DNA of 48,117 nt from Tepidisphaerales bacterium (GCA_038224615.1 JBBRFH010000001.1:1-48117); one strand, 5' to 3'; counted from the stretch's first letter, positions 1,408 to 22,776 are shown. Notes: a model not told the origin generated them from the sequence alone. Translations and numbers: made by a program.

Positions 1408-3501
1408 ATGACCTCGTCCCGAACCAAGGAATCACCGATGCCTTCGATGCAGATGCTCCGCCGCTCACTGATAATCGCCGCCGCTTTCAACGCGATGGCG
1501 CTGGCACAGAACCCGCCCGCGCCGCCTGTGCAGGCTGCCGACCTGCCGGTGAAGGCGGTCACACTCTTTTCGTCCGGCGTCGGGTATTTCGAGCATTTCG
1601 GCTCGGTCAAAGGCGACGGCTCGACTGAGCTGCGCTTCAAGACCCAGCAGATCAACGACATCCTCAAGTCGCTGGTCCTTCAAGATCTCGACGGCGGCTT
1701 CGTTTCGACTGTGCAGTACCCGTCGCAGGATCCGGTCGAGAAGACGCTCAAGAGCTTCCAAGTCGACATCACCGGCAATCCGCCTCTGGCTGATCTGCTC
1801 AACCAGTTGCGCGGCGCCCGGGTCACGCTCAAGAGCCAAGCCGAAGTGATCAACGGCATCATCCTCGGCGTCGAGAAACGCCAGGTGTCCGTCGCGCCGC
1901 AGACGCCGGCGATCGACTCGTGGTTCGTCAACGTCATCGACGGCGCGAACATCCGCCAGGTCGAGATGAACAAGATCGCCGACGTGCAGCTCAACGACGC
2001 CAACCTGCAGAACGAACTCGGCAAGGCGCTTGAAGCGCTCGCCAAGGCGCGCGACCGGGACAAGAAGTCGGTGATGATCAATTTCACCGGGCAAGGCGAT
2101 CGCCGCATACGGCTCGGGTACGTCGTCGAATCGCCGGTGTGGAAGACCAGTTACCGCCTCATCCTCGGCGACAAAGAATCCAACCTGCAGGGCTGGGCGA
2201 TCGTGGAAAACCAGACCGACAACGACTGGAACAACGTCCAACTGAGCCTCGTCAGCGGCCGGCCTATCAGCTTCGTGATGGACCTCTATCAGCCGCTCTA
2301 CATTCCGCGGCCGATTGTGCAATTGGAGTTGTTCCAATCGCTTCGCCCGCAGGTCTACGGCGGGGGGATGCCGACACCGGCGCAGGCACCGATGTCGAAG
2401 GCGTCCCGAATGCGCAACAAGGACCAGGCCGCTGCCGACGCACCCAACGAGATGGCGTTCGAAGGGATCGCCGCTGCCGCCAGCGCGGCGCCTGCGTCGC
2501 CGCCCATGGACCCGACCTCTTCGATCCAGTCGCTCGCTTCGGCGGCCAAGCTCGGCGAACTCTTCCAGTATACCGTCGGCAACGTTTCCCTGCCGCGTCA
2601 GAAGAGCGCGATGATCCCGATCGTCACCGACAAGGTCGAGGTCGAGCGCGTCTCGATCTACAACCCCCGGGTGATGCCGCGCAATCCGCTCAACGGCGCG
2701 CTCGTCACCAACAGCACGGACAAGCACCTGCTGCAAGGCCCGATCACCGTCTTCGACAACGGCGGCTACGCCGGGGACGCGCAGATCGACAACCTGCCGC
2801 CCAAGCAGAAGCGCCTGCTGAGCTACGGCGTCGATCTGCAGACGCTGGTCGACGTCCAGCCGCAGTTCGCCAATAACGTCGTCAGCGGCAAGATCGTCAA
2901 AGGCGTGCTGATGGTGCAGCGCAAGGTCGTCAAATCGAGCACCTACAAGGCCCAGAACAATGCCGACAAGGATAAGACGATCGTCGTCGAACACGCGTTC
3001 GACGCCGGCTGGACCCTCGTCAAAACCGCCGATCCGTTCGAGAAAACCGATCGATTTTATCGCTTCCGCCTGCCGGTCAAGAAGGGTGAGCAGGGCACGC
3101 TCGCAATCAGCGAGGAGATGGTGCAGCAGGAAGTGATCGCGCTGATTCCGCAGGACCCCAACGCGGTCCTGATCTATGCTCAGGAAGGCGCCATCCCGCA
3201 GAAGGTCCGCGACGCCCTCATCGACGCCGCCAAGCGCAAGCAGGCGATGATCGACGTGCAGCGGCAGATTGAGGAGCGTACCCAGAAGATCGCCGCGATT
3301 TCGCAGGAGCAGAATCGCATCCGCGAGAACATGCGCACCGTCGATAAGACCAGCCAGTACTACCAGCGCCTGCTGACCAAGCTCAACGAGCAGGAAACGC
3401 AGCTCGAAAAATTCAACGATGAATCAGACAAGCTGCGCACGCAATTGGAGACGGCCCGGGTTGATCTGGAGAAATTCCTGAACGGGCTGGATGTGGAGTA
3501 A
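1408..3501 (+). CDS. secreted DUF4139-like protein with C-terminal coiled coil
   Basis: The 5' part of ORF 988..3501 is antisense to aroA. Plausible starts are ATG 1408, 1438, 1447 or 1453, followed by the signal-like MLRRSLIIAAAFNAMALAQ. ENQTDNDWNNVQLSLVSGRPISF resembles the DUF4139 family (recalled from memory). The C-terminal ~110 aa are heptad-rich. Confidence 0.7.
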   Translation: MTSSRTKESPMPSMQMLRRSLIIAAAFNAMALAQNPPAPPVQAADLPVKAVTLFSSGVGYFEHFGSVKGDGSTELRFKTQQINDILKSLVLQDLDGGFVSTVQYPSQDPVEKTLKSFQVDITGNPPLADLLNQLRGARVTLKSQAEVINGIILGVEKRQVSVAPQTPAIDSWFVNVIDGANIRQVEMNKIADVQLNDANLQNELGKALEALAKARDRDKKSVMINFTGQGDRRIRLGYVVESPVWKTSYRLILGDKESNLQGWAIVENQTDNDWNNVQLSLVSGRPISFVMDLYQPLYIPRPIVQLELFQSLRPQVYGGGMPTPAQAPMSKASRMRNKDQAAADAPNEMAFEGIAAAASAAPASPPMDPTSSIQSLASAAKLGELFQYTVGNVSLPRQKSAMIPIVTDKVEVERVSIYNPRVMPRNPLNGALVTNSTDKHLLQGPITVFDNGGYAGDAQIDNLPPKQKRLLSYGVDLQTLVDVQPQFANNVVSGKIVKGVLMVQRKVVKSSTYKAQNNADKDKTIVVEHAFDAGWTLVKTADPFEKTDRFYRFRLPVKKGEQGTLAISEEMVQQEVIALIPQDPNAVLIYAQEGAIPQKVRDALIDAAKRKQAMIDVQRQIEERTQKIAAISQEQNRIRENMRTVDKTSQYYQRLLTKLNEQETQLEKFNDESDKLRTQLETARVDLEKFLNGLDVE

Positions 3502-9133: not shown

Positions 9134-9237
9134 AGAGAAGATTTCAGAACCGCAGATTACGCAGATGACGCAGATTTCCAAGGCGATTCATCTGCGCAAT
9201 CTGCGGTTCTCTCTCTCCAGTTCTGAAATAGCCTGTT
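9134..9237. repeat. hairpin repeat, CGCAGAT(T/G)A-unit family (copy c1)
   Basis: GAACCGCAGATTACGCAGATGACGCAGAT .. ATCTGCGCAATCTGCGGTTC, nested inside TTTCAGAAC / GTTCTGAAA. Confidence 0.85.
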
Positions 9238-17373: not shown

Positions 17374-17941
17374 GATCCGGGCAAAGGTAAGGGGACTGCC
17401 AAAATCGGGCAAGCCGCACCGATCGGCCTGTCCCGATCGGCCCGTGATGCATCCCGCCGCACACTGATACATTCTGCTACATTCGCCGCGCCTCGGTCTG
17501 GCCGAACCATCGGCCGGGTCGATGCTTACGCGATCCGCGCCGATGCACAGGGGGTATGCACAGGTGATACATCGTGTTGCATCATCCGTCTGATGTTGAA
17601 GAACTTGAGCGCGCACCCTGTCCCTCCGTATATCCTTGCGCGTTGCGCCGATCCGACTGCAAACGCGCAACGGAGCGCCGTAAGTGCTTGCTGCAGCGGG
17701 CCAAAAATTTCGGATTTTCGCTCGCACCCCGTTGCGCGAGTCACAACCCTTTCAGCGAGTTGGTCGGAGCGCCCCACCGAGCCAACGCTGTTGGTCTGGG
17801 TATGTTGCGAACGCACTTCGGAGTCGCTGTAACTACGCGGCGCGCGTAAATTGACGCACCGTGCAATAGAGGCCCGCCGAAGGGGACACCCAGAATATTC
17901 CTCCTGCGACGCCTCCGGTCGTAAACGCGCGGCAAGATTTC

Positions 17942-17959
17942 ACGGATTCGTCGGCGAAA
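17942..17959 (-). ncRNA. candidate tracrRNA anti-repeat (strand and transcript limits unknown)
   Basis: Plus strand ACGGATTCGTCGGCGAAA resembles repeat nt 16-33 (ACGGATTTGATCGGCGGA). A minus-strand RNA, UUUCGCCGACGAAUCCGU, would form 9 bp, then a 1-nt bulge, then 8 bp with the 3' half of the CRISPR repeat. Confidence 0.35.
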
Positions 17960-18141
17960 GCATCAGGATAGGGATATTCTGGATCGCCACTATTCGTTCC
18001 TCCTGCAGCCGTCTTGTTTGCGGCATCGCTTCAGGGTGATAGGATTGCACGCGAAGCGTCGTGATCGCGGTGCGTTGCCACGGTGGGGATTAGGCAACAA
18101 GTGGTAGTACTTTCTGACTTTCACGTTGGGGCGGTTGACCT

Positions 18142-20457
18142 ATGTCCGTACGGGCGATCAAATCCAGAGTCATCTGCGATCGGAAAATACTCGAGTCCCT
18201 TTGGCGGACGCACACCGTTTTCAATGAGCGGTTGCGACAAGTGGTTCGTCTGTTATTCAAGATGAGACGCGGCGAGTTCGGCGCTTCACCAGCACTTAGG
18301 CAGCTCTATCGAACGATTGCGTTGCACATAACCCATCTGGAATCGCAAAGCGCTCCCTACTTGCTTCACTCGGTCAGCATCAAAAACTGGACTTCGAACA
18401 CCGCTAAAAAAATCAAACCGGTCAATGTTCATGTTGATGGAAAGGACCGCACGATTGCCGTTGAAGAGTGGGTAGATCGCGCTGAAGAATTGTTAGCGAA
18501 CGGCCAGTTGGCTTACGACAAGAAGGAAATGATGGGCGATCTCCCCGGGTGTATGCAGAATATGTTGACGCGTGAAGCTGTCGCAGTCATCTCCGGACAC
18601 AATGAATTGACGACTTTGTGGAAAAAAGAACACGAGCAATGGTTGAAGGACAAAGAGGCGTGGGAAGCTGGAGACGAACAGAAGAAGTACCTCGCCGTGA
18701 AGTGCCATTTCGACGCGTTTGAGGAATTGGTCGGTGGGAAGATCCGGCAACGGCGCGGACGTTGGCACAAGTATCTGGACTTCCTTCGATCACTCCCACA
18801 ACTCGCGGCGTGGCGCGGTGGTGAAGCGAAGGTCAACGAACTCGATGATGCCGCGCTCAAACTCATCGCCAAGGCTCGTCTGCACAAGCGTCGTTCTGTC
18901 GAAGCCGAGGAGTTCTGGTCACGCAACCCCGAACTTCGCGCCCTCGATAAACTTCACGGAGATTACGAAAAGAAGTTCATGCGCCGAGGGAAACCAAAAC
19001 GCAATCCAGATGGTTTCAAGCACCCCCCGACGTTTACCGAGCCTCATCCGACGCTTCATCCACGTTGGTTCGTATTCAACGCGCCCCAAACGAAGCCGCC
19101 GGGTTGGCGAAACCTCTGCATCCCCGGTGCCGCTTCCACGACCGGAAGTATCGATCTGCAACTGCTTACCGGCGACAAAGTCGACCATGCCTACCCTGCA
19201 GCGTGGTCAACCATTCAATTCAAGGCTGATCCACGACTCTGCGACTTTCGACCGACCCTGGTGAAGACAATCACCACCAAAGGAAAGAACAAGGGGCAGG
19301 AGAAGACTAAGGCGTCATTCCTGTTCCATGATCGTCAGTTGAAAATTGCTCGCCCGGCAAACATCTCCGGCACCAAGCTGATCTTCAAGTTGGGCGCCGA
19401 CGGACACCCAGTCGCCGCATTCCTTGTGTTCACCTGCGACATCGACAATCAACCGCTCACCGAAAAAGCCAAGGAGACCAAGAATGAATTCTCCGAAGAA
19501 CGCAATAGCAGAGGCAAGTCCAAGTTTCTTGGACGCAAGACACCCGACGGCTTGATCTCCCTCTCGGTCGACATCGGCATTCGCCACATCGGGTTTGCAT
19601 CGCTCGCCCGGTGGAACAGGGACCAATTGAAAGTCGAGCTGATCCGCGCGCGGAATATTCGGATTGATTCGCCAGAATCGGGTTCACCTGACCTCGCAGC
19701 GCTCGCCGCACACAAAAAGCTACTTCGTCGTCGCCGCAGCCAACGGGGCGATCCGATCAGGGGCGAAAAGTCACACGTCGAATTACAGCAGCATATCGAC
19801 CACATGGCCGAAGACCGCTTTAAAAAGGCCGCCCGTGCCATCATCAATCTGGCGCTCAACGCGTCCGGCGATATAGACAAGAAGACTGGCCACCCCTTTC
19901 CGCGCGCCGACATCCTCATTCTTGAGAACCTTGCCAATCTATTGCCCGATGCCGAAAAGGAGCGCGGTATCAACTCATCGCTGATTGAGTTTAACCGCGG
20001 TCAGCTCGTCGATCGTGTAAAACAAGTCGCCGAAGACGTCGGCCTAAAGTTGTTTGAGGTCAGCCCGGTAGGAACGAGTCAAGTCTGTCATCGGTGTGGC
20101 GGACTGGGTCGTAGATACTCCATCAAAAGGGAAGCCGAGTCCAAAGGTCAACGGAAGCGTCCGGTCATCCATTTTGGCGTGACCGAATCACTTTTTGCAT
20201 GTCCAAAGTGTCCTGCCTTGGGAATGAAGCACGCCAACGCTCCGTTCACATGCAACTCCGACTATAACGCAGCCATGAACATACAACGCCGGTTCTACCT
20301 CGGCGATTCCGCCGTCAGTGCGTACCCGGTCGGGCAAGCGAACAAAGCAAAGCGAGACGCAGCCTATCTGGTCATTGATACTGCTCTGAGTCAACGACTT
20401 CGAAAACTGCATAACCTAAACTCGCCTGAAGAATCGGTGGGAGATTTGCCTTGGTAA
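18142..20457 (+). CDS. cas12: compact type V CRISPR effector, Cas12b-like (771 aa)
   Basis: RuvC-I LSVDIGIRHIG (D477, nt 19570-19572). Arg-rich bridge helix KKLLRRRRSQRG. RuvC-II ADILILENL (E595, nt 19924-19926). Zinc ribbon C649xxC652...C687xxC690. RuvC-III CNSDYNAAMNIQ (D707, nt 20260-20262). The N-terminus MSVRAIKSRV..LWRTHTVFNE and the segment HIDHMAEDRFKKAARAIINLAL resemble Cas12b as I remember it. A CRISPR array lies 397 nt downstream on the same strand. Confidence 0.9.
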   Translation: MSVRAIKSRVICDRKILESLWRTHTVFNERLRQVVRLLFKMRRGEFGASPALRQLYRTIALHITHLESQSAPYLLHSVSIKNWTSNTAKKIKPVNVHVDGKDRTIAVEEWVDRAEELLANGQLAYDKKEMMGDLPGCMQNMLTREAVAVISGHNELTTLWKKEHEQWLKDKEAWEAGDEQKKYLAVKCHFDAFEELVGGKIRQRRGRWHKYLDFLRSLPQLAAWRGGEAKVNELDDAALKLIAKARLHKRRSVEAEEFWSRNPELRALDKLHGDYEKKFMRRGKPKRNPDGFKHPPTFTEPHPTLHPRWFVFNAPQTKPPGWRNLCIPGAASTTGSIDLQLLTGDKVDHAYPAAWSTIQFKADPRLCDFRPTLVKTITTKGKNKGQEKTKASFLFHDRQLKIARPANISGTKLIFKLGADGHPVAAFLVFTCDIDNQPLTEKAKETKNEFSEERNSRGKSKFLGRKTPDGLISLSVDIGIRHIGFASLARWNRDQLKVELIRARNIRIDSPESGSPDLAALAAHKKLLRRRRSQRGDPIRGEKSHVELQQHIDHMAEDRFKKAARAIINLALNASGDIDKKTGHPFPRADILILENLANLLPDAEKERGINSSLIEFNRGQLVDRVKQVAEDVGLKLFEVSPVGTSQVCHRCGGLGRRYSIKREAESKGQRKRPVIHFGVTESLFACPKCPALGMKHANAPFTCNSDYNAAMNIQRRFYLGDSAVSAYPVGQANKAKRDAAYLVIDTALSQRLRKLHNLNSPEESVGDLPW

Positions 20458-20502
20458 ATGACCGCGAACTCGGTAACATACCCCCTTCGCGTTCGTGCTT
20501 CG

Positions 20503-20540
20503 GCACCGCCGACCACAGCTATATGCAAGGTCGGTGGCGC
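20503..20540 (+). other. stable hairpin just 3' of cas12
   Basis: GCACCGCCGACC / GGTCGGTGGCGC stem (9 contiguous pairs including one G.U, plus 2 outer pairs) with a 14-nt loop. Its left arm contains CCGCCGA, complementary to repeat nt 26-32 (TCGGCGG). Confidence 0.5.
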
Positions 20541-20854
20541 GAGTAATACTGTGTTTGAGTGTCAACAGCCGTTGAGTCGAAGGCCGCCTCAATCGAGAAG
20601 GCCGAAAAGACATTATGGAGTCGGAGCAATCCGACCGAGGCGACGGTGACGCACAGTGAGTCGATCTTAGACAACCGAACCGATTGCGCGTGGTGACGTG
20701 GTGCGCGATTTGCCGGGGTTCCGCGAACCATCGTTCCGAAAGGGATTTGTGGAAGATCTTCCGGCTAATTTGGATACGGTCCGTACACGATTTTTCGAAC
20801 CTCGCGTATCCGTGATCCTAACTGATCGTCAATCAAGTTTTTCGACGAGGGTGG

Positions 20855-21178
20855 AATGCAGCGATTCGGACGGATTTGATCGGCGGACACGGATTGCTTG
20901 CTACACTCCGCCGCACCATTACATTCAATGCAGCGATTCGGACGGATTTGATCGGCGGACACCAGCGGCCTCAACCTGAAAAACCCGAACCCCAAAGCAA
21001 TGCAGCGATTCGGACGGATTTGATCGGCGGACACCGGGCCATACTCTTCGTCGAATCCCACAATCGTGCCAATGCAGCGATTCGGACGGATTTGATCGGC
21101 GGACACCAAGCCCTTGACCCCAGCGGCATGATATTGTGTGACAATGCAGCGATTCGGACGGATTTGATCGGCGGACAC
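20855..21178 (+). CRISPR. CRISPR array, 5 identical 36-nt repeats and 4 spacers of 36 nt
   Basis: Repeat AATGCAGCGATTCGGACGGATTTGATCGGCGGACAC at 20855, 20927, 20999, 21071 and 21143, an exact 72-nt period. The four spacers are unique. The strand given is the favoured one, not a proven one. Confidence 0.95.
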
Positions 21179-21213
21179 CGGGACAGTGCTGATCGACGAG
21201 TGCGAGAATAGAT

Positions 21214-21269
21214 TGAAGGGGACGTAAGTCGTCAAAGAAATAGTACAATGAATATCTACGTCCCCTTCA
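21214..21269. repeat. perfect 13-bp inverted repeat with AT-rich 30-nt loop
   Basis: TGAAGGGGACGTA (21214-21226) and TACGTCCCCTTCA (21257-21269), 36 nt after the last CRISPR repeat. Confidence 0.7.
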
Positions 21270-21324
21270 TCTCTTCCAACTGATCGCGCAGGTCGACTGA
21301 AGCGTTCCAAGCACCCAGACCTCG

Positions 21325-21352
21325 CCGCGCCCGCAGCGCGGTCTTTTTATTT
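21325..21352 (+). terminator. intrinsic terminator downstream of the CRISPR array
   Basis: CCGCGC-ccgca-GCGCGG stem followed by TCTTTTTATTT. No A-run lies upstream, so it is plus-strand specific. Confidence 0.65.
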
Positions 21353-21384
21353 AAGAGGAACAAAGAATCGCGAGCGCGTGAAGG

Positions 21385-21512
21385 GCGCGAAGCAGAACGC
21401 GAAGCGAAGACGGGAACCACAGATTTCACAGATGACACAGATTAGAAACAAATCAATCTGTGAAATCTGTGCAATCTGTGGTTCCAAAGCATTTCTCTGC
21501 TTCGCGGTTCTC
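21385..21512. repeat. composite long palindrome (CGCGAAG plus CACAGAT units), copy c3
   Basis: GCGCGAAGCAGAACGCGAAGCGAAGACGGGAACCACAGATTTCACAGATGACACAGATT .. AATCTGTGAAATCTGTGCAATCTGTGGTTCCAAAGCATTTCTCTGCTTCGCGGTTCTC. Confidence 0.8.
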
Positions 21513-21526
21513 TGGGTGCCAACAAA

Positions 21527-21563
21527 AACGCCGAGCCCGGTTGAGCTCGGCGTTTGCGTGTTT
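21527..21563. terminator. bidirectional-looking intrinsic terminator
   Basis: An AAAAA run, the AACGCCGAGC / GCTCGGCGTT stem, then TTGCGTGTTT. Confidence 0.55.
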
Positions 21564-21866
21564 AGTGTCGGGGGGTGAGAAGGGAGGGGGGGACCCTTCT
21601 CGGGGGACACCCCCGACAAACCGACCCTTCGGCGATCAACCGCGTGGCCGGTGTTCAGTCATGTTCGTGTACGACTGATGTGTTGAATATAGGCTCTACA
21701 TTCGTTCGGTCAAATAAGAAATTTCCCGTTCCAAAAGCAGACCCATTTCGTTTTTATTTTGTCGCAGTGCCATGGTCATGCGTCGATGCGTTTACGCGGA
21801 TGCTTGACGCGTGTGACGAACCGCTGAAGCACGCGGCTTGCGGGGTGAACACGCGTCGGTGAAGCT

Positions 21867-22617: not shown

Positions 22618-22776
22618 GAACCGCGAAAGCGCGAAGGACGCGGAGAGAAGCGGGGGAACCGCAGATTACGCAGATTACGCAGATTCAGAAAAAACCAATT
22701 AATCTGCGTAATCTGCGGTTCCAAAGCATTTTCTCTGCTTTGCGTTTTCTTCGCGTCCTTTGCGCTTTCGCGGTTC
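22618..22776. repeat. composite long palindrome (CGCGAAG plus CGCAGATTA units), copy c4
   Basis: A ~160-nt imperfect palindrome: GAACCGCGAAAGCGCGAAGGACGCGG..GGAACCGCAGATTACGCAGATTACGCAGATT / AATCTGCGTAATCTGCGGTTCC..CGCGTCCTTTGCGCTTTCGCGGTTC. Confidence 0.85.

Follow-up and report, generated by a model that had tools for sequence, protein, structure and literature searches.

Subtype V-B variant 2 (V-B2) is said to date from the 2020 Makarova classification, where Planctomycetes RBG_13_46_10 served as its reference locus. According to Altae-Tran et al. (PNAS 2023, PMC10691335), its effector Cas12b2 is a protein of 700-800 aa, found mostly in Planctomycetota and called "experimentally uncharacterized", and some V-B2 loci carry Cas1-Cas4 and Cas2. 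In the literature a Cas4-Cas1 fusion is reported solely for V-B. A second recognised small V-B offshoot, Cas12b3, is described as an inactivated variant on Actinomyces plasmids and, like the locus analysed here, has a mini-array and lacks adaptation genes (Makarova et al., Nat Microbiol 2025, PMC12669027). By a proposal in the literature, the Cas12b2/b1 clade descends from a branch of TnpB.

The locus lies in a 48,117-nt stretch of DNA (the window) from the chromosome of a Tepidisphaeraceae bacterium (Planctomycetota), where it occupies a low-GC island of 4 kb, with sucD on one side and a hypothetical gene on the other. The product of this sucD shares 87-91% identity with proteins of Tepidisphaeraceae MAGs, and the nearest homologues of the effector come from Tepidisphaeraceae and Phycisphaerales MAGs. 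As originally predicted, the effector gene, cas12b2 (18142..20457, + strand), begins with ATG and encodes 771 aa, and the N-terminus of the protein is in register with the family consensus. The three catalytic residues named in the original prediction, D477 of RuvC-I (nt 19570-19572), E595 of RuvC-II (nt 19924-19926) and D707 of RuvC-III (nt 20260-20262), all encoded on the + strand, carry no inactivating change and are invariant in a family alignment of 30 sequences; in this respect the window effector differs from the inactivated Cas12b3. C649, C652 and C687 of the CxxC...CxxC zinc ribbon (C649/C652/C687/C690) are likewise invariant in that alignment, and C690 is present in the window protein. 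The Pfam family Cas12f1-like_TNB (PF07282) also matches the protein (1.9e-9). Among 120 homologues listed, most are 740-800 aa long.

Profile and fold comparisons, both proposed along with the original prediction, point to the same subtype. The PADLOC Cas12b profile PDLC01655 (720 positions) matches the protein over its full length (E=1e-247; residues 19-760 aligned to positions 2-714 of the profile) and PDLC01654/56 (664 positions) match it at E=7e-180; PADLOC labels all three 'Cas12b / CAS-V-B', and we infer the B2 identity of these short profiles from their length. Matches to the long Cas12b profiles (1000-1130 positions) are confined to the RuvC region (1e-22 to 1e-27). When an AF2 model of the effector (pLDDT 85.2) was compared with the PDB using Foldseek, ranks 1-4 were taken by Bth and Aac Cas12b (E=7.7e-22 to 3.8e-16, TM 0.49-0.50), with BthCas12b at the top, and a family profile searched against the PDB found 5wti (Cas12b) first (5.3e-16). 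Since the PDLC01655 match is full-length and the size, host phylum and optional Cas4-Cas1/Cas2 module agree with those published for Cas12b2, the locus almost certainly belongs to V-B2, the variant from Planctomycetes that the original prediction had named as one possibility. It shares with V-B2 an effector of 771 aa (versus 700-800), a Planctomycetota host, Cas12b-type RuvC and zinc-ribbon motifs, an adjacent array, and a Cas4-Cas1 fusion and Cas2 that are present in some related loci and missing in others; no defining feature of the variant is missing, and the window provides a stand-alone example. The type of system is therefore already known, V-B2 being named, profiled and represented by more than 130 homologues of this effector, and the earlier suggestion of an undescribed lineage finds no support.

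Canonical Cas12b (V-B1) was considered and rejected as an assignment: such effectors have ~1100-1300 aa, and the window protein, about two thirds of that size as originally noted, scores 79.3 bits in three short stretches against NCBIfam NF033949 (Cas12b equivalog), under the cut-off of 150. Judged by fold and profile ranking, Cas12b1 (AacCas12b, BthCas12b; 5u30, 5wti) is nonetheless its nearest characterised relative, giving the best fold match (E=7.7e-22, TM ~0.5) and the same domain order (WED, REC, RuvC-I, bridge helix, RuvC-II, zinc-ribbon Nuc, RuvC-III). Both systems also have 36-nt repeats and, by our prediction for the window, a dual RNA guide with a tracrRNA, and the ...GGCAC end of the Aac crRNA handle resembles the ...GACAC end seen here. 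In contrast to Cas12b1, the window effector has ~350 fewer residues and reduced REC and Nuc regions, and the two are only ~14-15% identical in structural alignment, with sequence similarity detectable from RuvC-II onward only.

In agreement with the original prediction, cas1, cas2 and cas4 are absent from the 48 kb: Pfam scans assigned the 30 largest coding ORFs to housekeeping or unrelated families, and a tblastn search of all six window frames, with the Cas4-Cas1 fusion and Cas2 of a cognate V-B2 system as queries, returned nothing at E<=1. A Cas4-Cas1 fusion and Cas2 lie directly upstream of the effector gene in about half of the related loci (among them L001, L011, L015, L019, L020/21/34 and L086/87), while roughly every second relative examined lacks this module. 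Because the published description gives the module to 'some' loci only, its absence here does not exclude V-B2.

The layout of gene, tracrRNA, leader and array is conserved in the family. The original prediction described the 397 nt between gene and array (20458-20854) as a structured non-coding spacer; the length is correct, and the predicted tracrRNA lies inside it on the + strand. In 32 loci a scaffold is conserved on this strand ~100-130 nt past the stop codon, and it covaries: compensatory changes occur in 22 of the 29 pairs of the RNAalifold consensus, and 92% of the alignment cells are paired versus 36-45% with the partners slid, values that none of 500 shuffles reached. The window scaffold (approximately 20487..20654, + strand) comprises a hairpin (20495-20506), a helix (20507-20515 with 20529-20537), the invariant motif TGAGTGTCAA (20556-20565), long-range helices (20560-20574 with 20641-20651) and internal hairpins (20582-20603 and 20622-20633), and it forms 22 of the 29 consensus pairs, with helix 1 in a shifted register. 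An Rfam search of the scaffold gave no family matches. Upstream of it, a putative promoter (20451..20479, + strand) consists of a TTGGTA box that overlaps the cas12b2 stop codon (20451-20456), 17 nt, and a TAACAT box (20474-20479), and would place the tracrRNA start near 20487. Sigma-70-like box pairs (e.g. TTGCCA-N17-TATAAA and TTGACG-N17-TAAGAT) are found in most of 23 related loci, where the -10 box ends 79-85 nt upstream of the invariant motif. The putative window promoter shares only 8 of the 12 consensus positions, which is why a strict promoter scan missed it.

The anti-repeat follows the scaffold at 20655-20689 (+ strand), a position well supported by comparison with the relatives, whose anti-repeats it matches in place. 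In at least 15 related loci the anti-repeat is found on the + strand between gene and array; anti-repeats of the relatives lie at +190 to +280 nt relative to the stop codon, form duplexes of -31 to -56 kcal/mol and track the repeat of their own locus, as in the AT-rich L024. The window anti-repeat is predicted to pair with repeat positions 2-35 in interrupted fashion, through a 7-bp GTCGATC/GATCGGC core and then 5 bp and 7 bp outward; at -27.8 kcal/mol the duplex equals its non-cognate mean and is weaker than those of the relatives. The original prediction had instead placed a candidate anti-repeat upstream of the gene, at 17942-17959. The minus-strand duplex of that site reaches -33 to -36 kcal/mol, and since 106 of 6338 tiles of this GC-rich window reach -33 or better, it is indistinguishable from chance. 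The available text of the published V-B2 papers contains no description of the tracrRNA position, promoter or covarying scaffold of this variant.

The CRISPR array (20855..21178, + strand) has the five-repeat, 36/36-nt structure given in the original prediction, with identical repeats (AATGCAGCGATTCGGACGGATTTGATCGGCGGACAC) recurring every 72 nt exactly and four spacers between them (20891-20926, 20963-20998, 21035-21070 and 21107-21142). Reading follows the + strand, such that each crRNA would consist of the 3' end of the repeat (...GATCGGCGGACAC) and then the spacer. Across 26 related loci, gene and array share a strand and the array follows 390-530 nt 3' of the gene; the repeats there are 36 nt long, and nearly all have the GACAC end. 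Searches for protospacers of the window spacers found none. Between anti-repeat and array, the window has a degenerate copy (~20684-20730, + strand) of a hairpin-like block that is conserved in the family (consensus GCGAGTG-N28-CGCTCGC), and then a leader, in which GCTCG and TAAGTG-like motifs are conserved (~20799-20825, + strand), that runs to the first repeat at 20855. Across this block and leader (20684..20854; RNAalifold columns 469-668) the alignment is conserved at the sequence level, without covariation, and the region may act as a 3' domain of the tracrRNA, a leader signal or an array promoter. Beyond the array, pattern scanning and folding identified a hairpin with a 12-bp stem (21215-21268, + strand; GAAGGGGACGTA...TACGTCCCCTTC). 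The intrinsic terminator of the original prediction was also recovered, as a terminator-like hairpin (GCCGCGC-CCGCA-GCGCGGT) and T-run (CTTTTTATTT) at 21324-21352 on the strand of the gene, tracrRNA and array.

These features suggest how the system might operate. The promoter over the cas12b2 stop codon would drive a + strand tracrRNA of ~200-250 nt (from about 20487 to 20700-20735), and the downstream array would be transcribed in the same direction, ending at the terminator (21324-21352). The anti-repeat would pair with each repeat, and a processed crRNA would remain bound to the tracrRNA inside Cas12b2. The resulting complex would locate complementary DNA, rather than RNA, beside a PAM and cut it with its single RuvC site (D477/E595/D707), aided by the zinc-ribbon TNB domain, as in Cas12b1. 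Because V-B2 effectors are experimentally uncharacterized in the literature, RNA-guided, PAM-dependent DNA cleavage by Cas12b2 is an extrapolation from Cas12b1. If new spacers are acquired at all, they would be supplied by Cas1-Cas2 from another part of the genome. The mechanism is reasonably likely to operate as proposed; V-B2 placement and mechanism, graded as one proposition, are very probably right.

Two alternative identities of the effector have to be weighed against V-B2. The protein could represent a different type V subtype, either a named or an undescribed one, for instance as an RNA-targeting effector like Cas12g (V-G, also raised in the original prediction), given that its 771 aa are close to the 767-aa Cas12g chains in the PDB, that it misses the NCBIfam Cas12b equivalog cut-off (79 vs 150 bits) and that only its RuvC-II to RuvC-III region resembles solved Cas12b structures in sequence. 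This is very improbable in view of the end-to-end match to a profile labelled Cas12b / CAS-V-B and of the Cas4-Cas1 fusion in relatives, which the literature gives to V-B only. Moreover, there is no Cas12g profile among the 18 PADLOC families listed, and Cas12g structures rank 13th or lower in the fold search (E=1.6e-10, TM 0.29-0.33), with Cas12b first at TM ~0.5; the family profile matches Cas12g in the PDB at 8e-10, covering the RuvC C-terminal region alone. A second possibility is a TnpB-like nuclease of the IS200/IS605 kind, with an omega-RNA 3' of the gene, incidental repeats and a mobile rather than an immune role. The locus shares with TnpB the RuvC and zinc-ribbon core and a guide scaffold RNA that is encoded in the same orientation as the nuclease gene and immediately 3' of it; its homologues are labelled 'transposase' in public annotation, it sits in a low-GC island, and integrases and ArdC surround one relative. 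Nevertheless, no tnpA or other transposase occurs among the 30 largest coding ORFs of the window, the protein reaches 43.8 bits for NCBIfam guided_TnpB, where the cut-off is 100, and it is about twice the size of TnpB, with a REC lobe. In addition, the guide comes from a CRISPR array as a separate crRNA, regular arrays with unique spacers lie 3' of the gene in 26 loci, and Cas4-Cas1 and Cas2 stand beside the gene in many relatives. The TnpB-like reading, which the original prediction had also set aside, is thus already largely refuted, and we regard it as exceedingly unlikely.

With the V-B2 identity retained, the locus might still be a decaying or orphaned remnant that has lost its adaptation module and its immune function, with repeats that have drifted from the anti-repeat and an ORF that is still open. 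Such decay is seen in relatives (L008 has a cas2 remnant and L013 lacks an array), and L001, a close relative (61% identity) with a tracrRNA of the same class, has directly upstream the cas genes that the window lacks. The cognate repeat:anti-repeat energy at the non-cognate mean, the degenerate hairpin block and the presence of only four spacers would fit this interpretation as well. We nonetheless consider it unlikely, as the 771-codon ORF is intact with all catalytic and zinc-binding residues kept, the five repeats are identical, and 22 of 29 scaffold pairs are maintained via compensatory substitutions. Stand-alone relatives, about as frequent as those with the module, include some with long arrays (10 repeats in L088 and 35 in L089). 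Comparison with a 99%-identical relative on a metagenome contig (L006) gives a dN/dS of ~0.19, and cas12b2 is under recent purifying selection. The second spacer is identical in these two near-identical strains while the leader-proximal spacer differs, so the array is dynamic, with spacer turnover pointing to recent activity.

The locus is a genuine type V-B2 (Cas12b2) interference module with a tracrRNA gene and a short, dynamic array, and it appears to be maintained. Its cas12b2 ORF (18142-20457, + strand, ATG start) encodes a 771-aa effector. In Pfam, this protein matched only the Cas12f1-like TNB zinc-ribbon domain, together with a sub-threshold C2c1 RuvC-like match; among NCBIfam models Cas12b ranked first, at 79 bits far short of its equivalog cut-off of 150, and the TnpB score likewise fell under its own cut-off. 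The PADLOC library holds Cas12b profiles in two sizes, short (664 and 720 positions) and long (1000-1130 positions). The short profiles cover the effector end to end (PDLC01655, 720 positions, E=1e-247; PDLC01654/56, 664 positions, E=7e-180), and the long ones match it around RuvC only (1e-22 to 1e-27). A sequence search of solved structures gave none close to the effector; the nearest was BthCas12b (4.6e-9 when the effector alone was the query, 5.3e-16 for the family profile), with similarity confined to the stretch from RuvC-II to RuvC-III. The AlphaFold2 model, computed with 30 homologues as input (pLDDT 85.2), had BthCas12b (E=7.7e-22) and AacCas12b (E=1e-19 to 4e-16) as its top PDB folds at a TM of ~0.5, with Cas12X, Cas12o, Cas12h, Cas12g and Cas12f ranked below. 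The RuvC residues D477, E595 and D707 are intact and, like C649, C652 and C687, invariant in the family alignment; C690 is the fourth cysteine completing the CxxC...CxxC ribbon.

Altae-Tran et al. 2023 (PMC10691335) describe Cas12b2 as the effectors of "experimentally uncharacterized Type V-B2" systems, 700-800 aa long, occurring mostly in Planctomycetota and forming the deepest branch of the Cas12b1/b2 clade; some V-B2 loci encode a Cas1-Cas4 fusion and Cas2 (PMC10691335). V-B2 effectors have been described as intermediates between TnpB and the large Cas12b1 enzymes. In our database search, 135 homologues shared 40-67% identity with the effector and one more shared 99%. Those listed were mostly 740-800 aa long, and the sources were Tepidisphaeraceae, Phycisphaerales, Pirellulales and some Acidobacteriota MAGs. 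The host itself is a Tepidisphaeraceae bacterium, the adjoining SucD being 87-91% identical to proteins of such MAGs. Cluster members are annotated in databases only as "transposase" or "hypothetical protein", and these names gave no link to the published V-B2 reference genome. Of the three placements initially entertained for the effector, V-B2 is the correct one, given the end-to-end match to the short Cas12b profile and the fit to the published description; V-G found no support, with Cas12g well behind Cas12b in the fold ranking, and neither did an undescribed lineage. Because V-B2 is already named, profiled and fairly widespread, the locus is a further member of a known variant and not a new system type. 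The sole V-B addition in the 2025 classification update (PMC12669027) is the inactivated Cas12b3, and literature searches for Cas12b2 or V-B2 returned no experimental work after Altae-Tran et al. 2023. Six distant relatives (L029-L032, L035 and L042; 30-38% identity, with the match stopping near residue 719) have arrays with other repeats, including 36-nt repeats ending in ACCAC with 30-nt spacers in L035 and spacers of 36-42 nt in L042, and may be separate sub-branches of the Cas12b2 family.

No Cas1, Cas2, Cas4 or transposase was found among the 30 largest coding ORFs of the window, which encode housekeeping or unrelated proteins (EPSP synthase, NuoH, FtsW/RodA, SucD, MTHFR, 6PGD and others). 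In one related locus, L086, a Cas4-Cas1 fusion of 568 aa and a Cas2 of 96 aa are encoded directly upstream of cas12b2, and these two proteins served as tblastn queries for the adaptation module. The module lies directly upstream of cas12b2 in L001, L011, L015, L019, L020/21/34 and L086/87; nothing was found in L002, L007/89/90, L010, L013, L027 and L088, and all six frames of the window gave no match at E<=1, in agreement with the original prediction that cas1, cas2 and cas4 are missing from it. Given this split across the relatives examined, stand-alone loci make up about half of the family, and the locus studied here is one of them. Signs of decay or rearrangement of the module are seen in two relatives: in L008 (1722-1811), only 30 aa from the C-terminus of Cas2 are left just ahead of cas12b2, and in L011 (878-2882), ~1.7 kb is inserted between cas2 and cas12b2 and another short cas2-like fragment lies at 2753-2818.

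The 397-nt spacer between gene and array has no credible ORF, and an alignment of such regions from related loci revealed a highly conserved RNA gene in the order promoter, 5' end, helices, anti-repeat. A sigma-70-like promoter follows straight after the stop codon, its -10 box ending 79-85 nt before the invariant TGAGTGTCAA in most loci, and the conserved 5' end of the tracrRNA is GTGGAGCAAGG. RNAalifold gave 29 pairs, with compensatory changes in 22 of them; 92% of cells were paired, compared with 36-45% when partners were slid by 1-3 columns, and none of 500 shuffles did as well as the real alignment by any measure. Among the fetched loci, 32 contain the TGAGTGTCAA motif, each time on the + strand just downstream of the gene. 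An Rfam search of the region returned no matching family and only chance miRNA matches on an unrelated palindrome. In the window, the scaffold (~20487-20654, + strand) retains 22 of the 29 consensus pairs, several via compensatory substitutions, and helix 1 is present in a shifted register. Promoter-like boxes are predicted on the + strand at 20451-20456 (TTGGTA) and 20474-20479 (TAACAT); a strict sigma-70 scan of this locus gave no promoter, and the tracrRNA promoter is proposed on positional conservation only. Two stretches complement the invariant tracrRNA motif GTGTC, one being a segment within the tracrRNA itself (consensus GGACAC; GACG in the window) and the other the GACAC that closes each repeat on its 3' side. 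The motif could therefore pair in either of two mutually exclusive ways. RNAalifold picked the internal option, which in the window joins 20560-20563 with 20648-20651.

In each related locus, the segment that pairs best with that locus's repeat was located between gene and array, on the + strand and 190-280 nt past the stop codon; these anti-repeats span nearly the whole repeat at -31 to -56 kcal/mol, even where repeats are AT-rich (L024, L033). The original prediction had instead proposed an anti-repeat ahead of the gene (17942-17959). Taken on the minus strand, this site pairs with the repeat at -33 to -36 kcal/mol (RNAduplex), but 106 of 6338 tiles of the window (62% GC) pair equally well or better, and chance energies of this order also turn up in the upstream regions of related loci; we rejected it as indistinguishable from background. 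The anti-repeat of the window is interrupted (20655-20689, + strand), with a 7-bp core opposite the conserved GATCGGC of the repeat followed by 5 + 7 pairs. Its duplex with the repeat (-27.8 kcal/mol) is no better than non-cognate pairings, a comparison of energies that is noisy as a covariation test in GC-rich sequence and uninformative for this locus, and this weak duplex is the main weakness in the case for full function of the locus.

Past the anti-repeat, family members share a hairpin conserved in sequence, GCGAGTG-N28-CGCTCGC, with the loop GGTGGTGAA...GGGG, a second GTGCTCG copy ~90 nt further on that could pair with the same 5' arm (GCGAG), and a TAAGTG leader motif ~30 nt ahead of the first repeat. 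The elements are partly degenerate in the window (~20684-20854, + strand). It is conceivable, if improbable, that Cas12b2 is more than a shrunken Cas12b1 and differs in guide architecture or processing (for example, a co-transcribed tracrRNA-leader-array precursor), or in PAM or substrate preference, while acquiring its spacers in trans. This reading draws on the extra block with its alternative GCGAG partners, on the guide scaffold gene, which sits in the position that omega-RNA has relative to TnpB, on the deep branching of Cas12b2 and on the patchy repeat:anti-repeat pairing in the window's sub-lineage; the block itself (alignment columns 478-640) showed no covariation.

The array (20855-21178, + strand) repeats AATGCAGCGATTCGGACGGATTTGATCGGCGGACAC five times without a mismatch, with a period of exactly 72 nt that leaves four 36-nt spacers. 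ORF listing, repeat finding and direct reading bear out the ORF, spacer region, array and terminator as originally described. Read on the gene strand, almost every repeat in the family terminates in GACAC, and conservation is highest over the final 14 nt, consistent with a type V crRNA whose repeat handle is at the 5' end. The metagenome contig L006 (Ga0105047_10115346) is ~99% identical to 17673-20996 of the window, with ~30 substitutions in the gene and an identical tracrRNA and leader. The leader-proximal spacer (20891-20926) is entirely different from its counterpart at 3219-3254 of that contig (TTTCCCGGCCTCCCGGATAATGCGAAGCACATAAAG) and the second spacer is identical, so the arrays differ at the leader-side end. 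Spacers have thus turned over between near-identical strains, though the window has no cas1 or cas2. Such a difference is expected from recent acquisition via Cas1-Cas2 encoded elsewhere; alternatively, it could stem from repeat-mediated loss out of a longer ancestral array. Between the same two sequences, cas12b2 has 16 synonymous codon differences (536 sites) and 10 non-synonymous ones (1777 sites), a dN/dS of ~0.19 that indicates purifying selection. No PAM could be inferred because protospacer searches were empty, whether with the opening 24 nt of all four spacers in IMG/VR, with the whole array in GenBank phages and PLSDB plasmids, or with the 172 unique spacers of all related arrays against all fetched loci. 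One relative (L013, 3862-6431) has a full-length cas12b2 and the tracrRNA motif, yet no detectable array in 3.8 kb downstream.

The locus changes nothing in known CRISPR biology. It has practical value as a complete test article, with an intact nuclease, a predicted tracrRNA and a defined crRNA handle. No V-B2 system is characterised in the literature searched, and this one can be tested directly thanks to the guide RNA architecture worked out for it: tracrRNA start, scaffold and anti-repeat are now predictable from at least 20 loci, and this prediction and the handle are all that is needed for designing a PAM screen and a single-guide RNA. The nuclease is ~30% smaller than Cas12b1. In addition, the array is a small natural case of spacer turnover without adaptation genes nearby.

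The module lies in a low-GC island (~17800-21800; 50-57% GC versus 60-70% in the flanks), and the cas12b2 ORF is without the host's high-GC3 codon pattern, which together suggest that the module as a whole was acquired horizontally. An empty-site comparison at the sucD loci of the closest genomes did not yield the limits of the island, as synteny is not conserved there. Downstream of the array, 37 nt past the last repeat, a perfect 12-bp stem (GAAGGGGACGTA / TACGTCCCCTTC) encloses a 29-nt AT-rich loop (21215-21268; local fold -27 kcal/mol), ahead of a terminator-like hairpin with a 7-bp GC-rich stem followed by CTTTTTATTT (21324-21352, + strand). A family of intergenic palindromes resembling REP/MITE elements (GGAACCRCAGATTWCRCAGAT ... 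ATCTGYGGTTCC), whose flanks are also alike (...GCGAAG... / AAAGCATTTYCTCTGCTT), occurs at 9151-9205, 21413-21485 and 22655-22720, one copy lying just past the CRISPR terminator; the core has 9 matches versus 0.15 expected by chance. The element is the source of the chance Rfam mir-263 match, and a 14-nt partial match to it (17935-17948) overlaps the rejected upstream anti-repeat. In two related sequences (L089/L090, 1-8000; contigs shared with L007), a 35-repeat Cas12b2 locus stands beside two tyrosine integrases and HTH proteins and adjoins an ArdC-like antirestriction/MPTase protein, which suggests that it is carried on an integrative mobile element.
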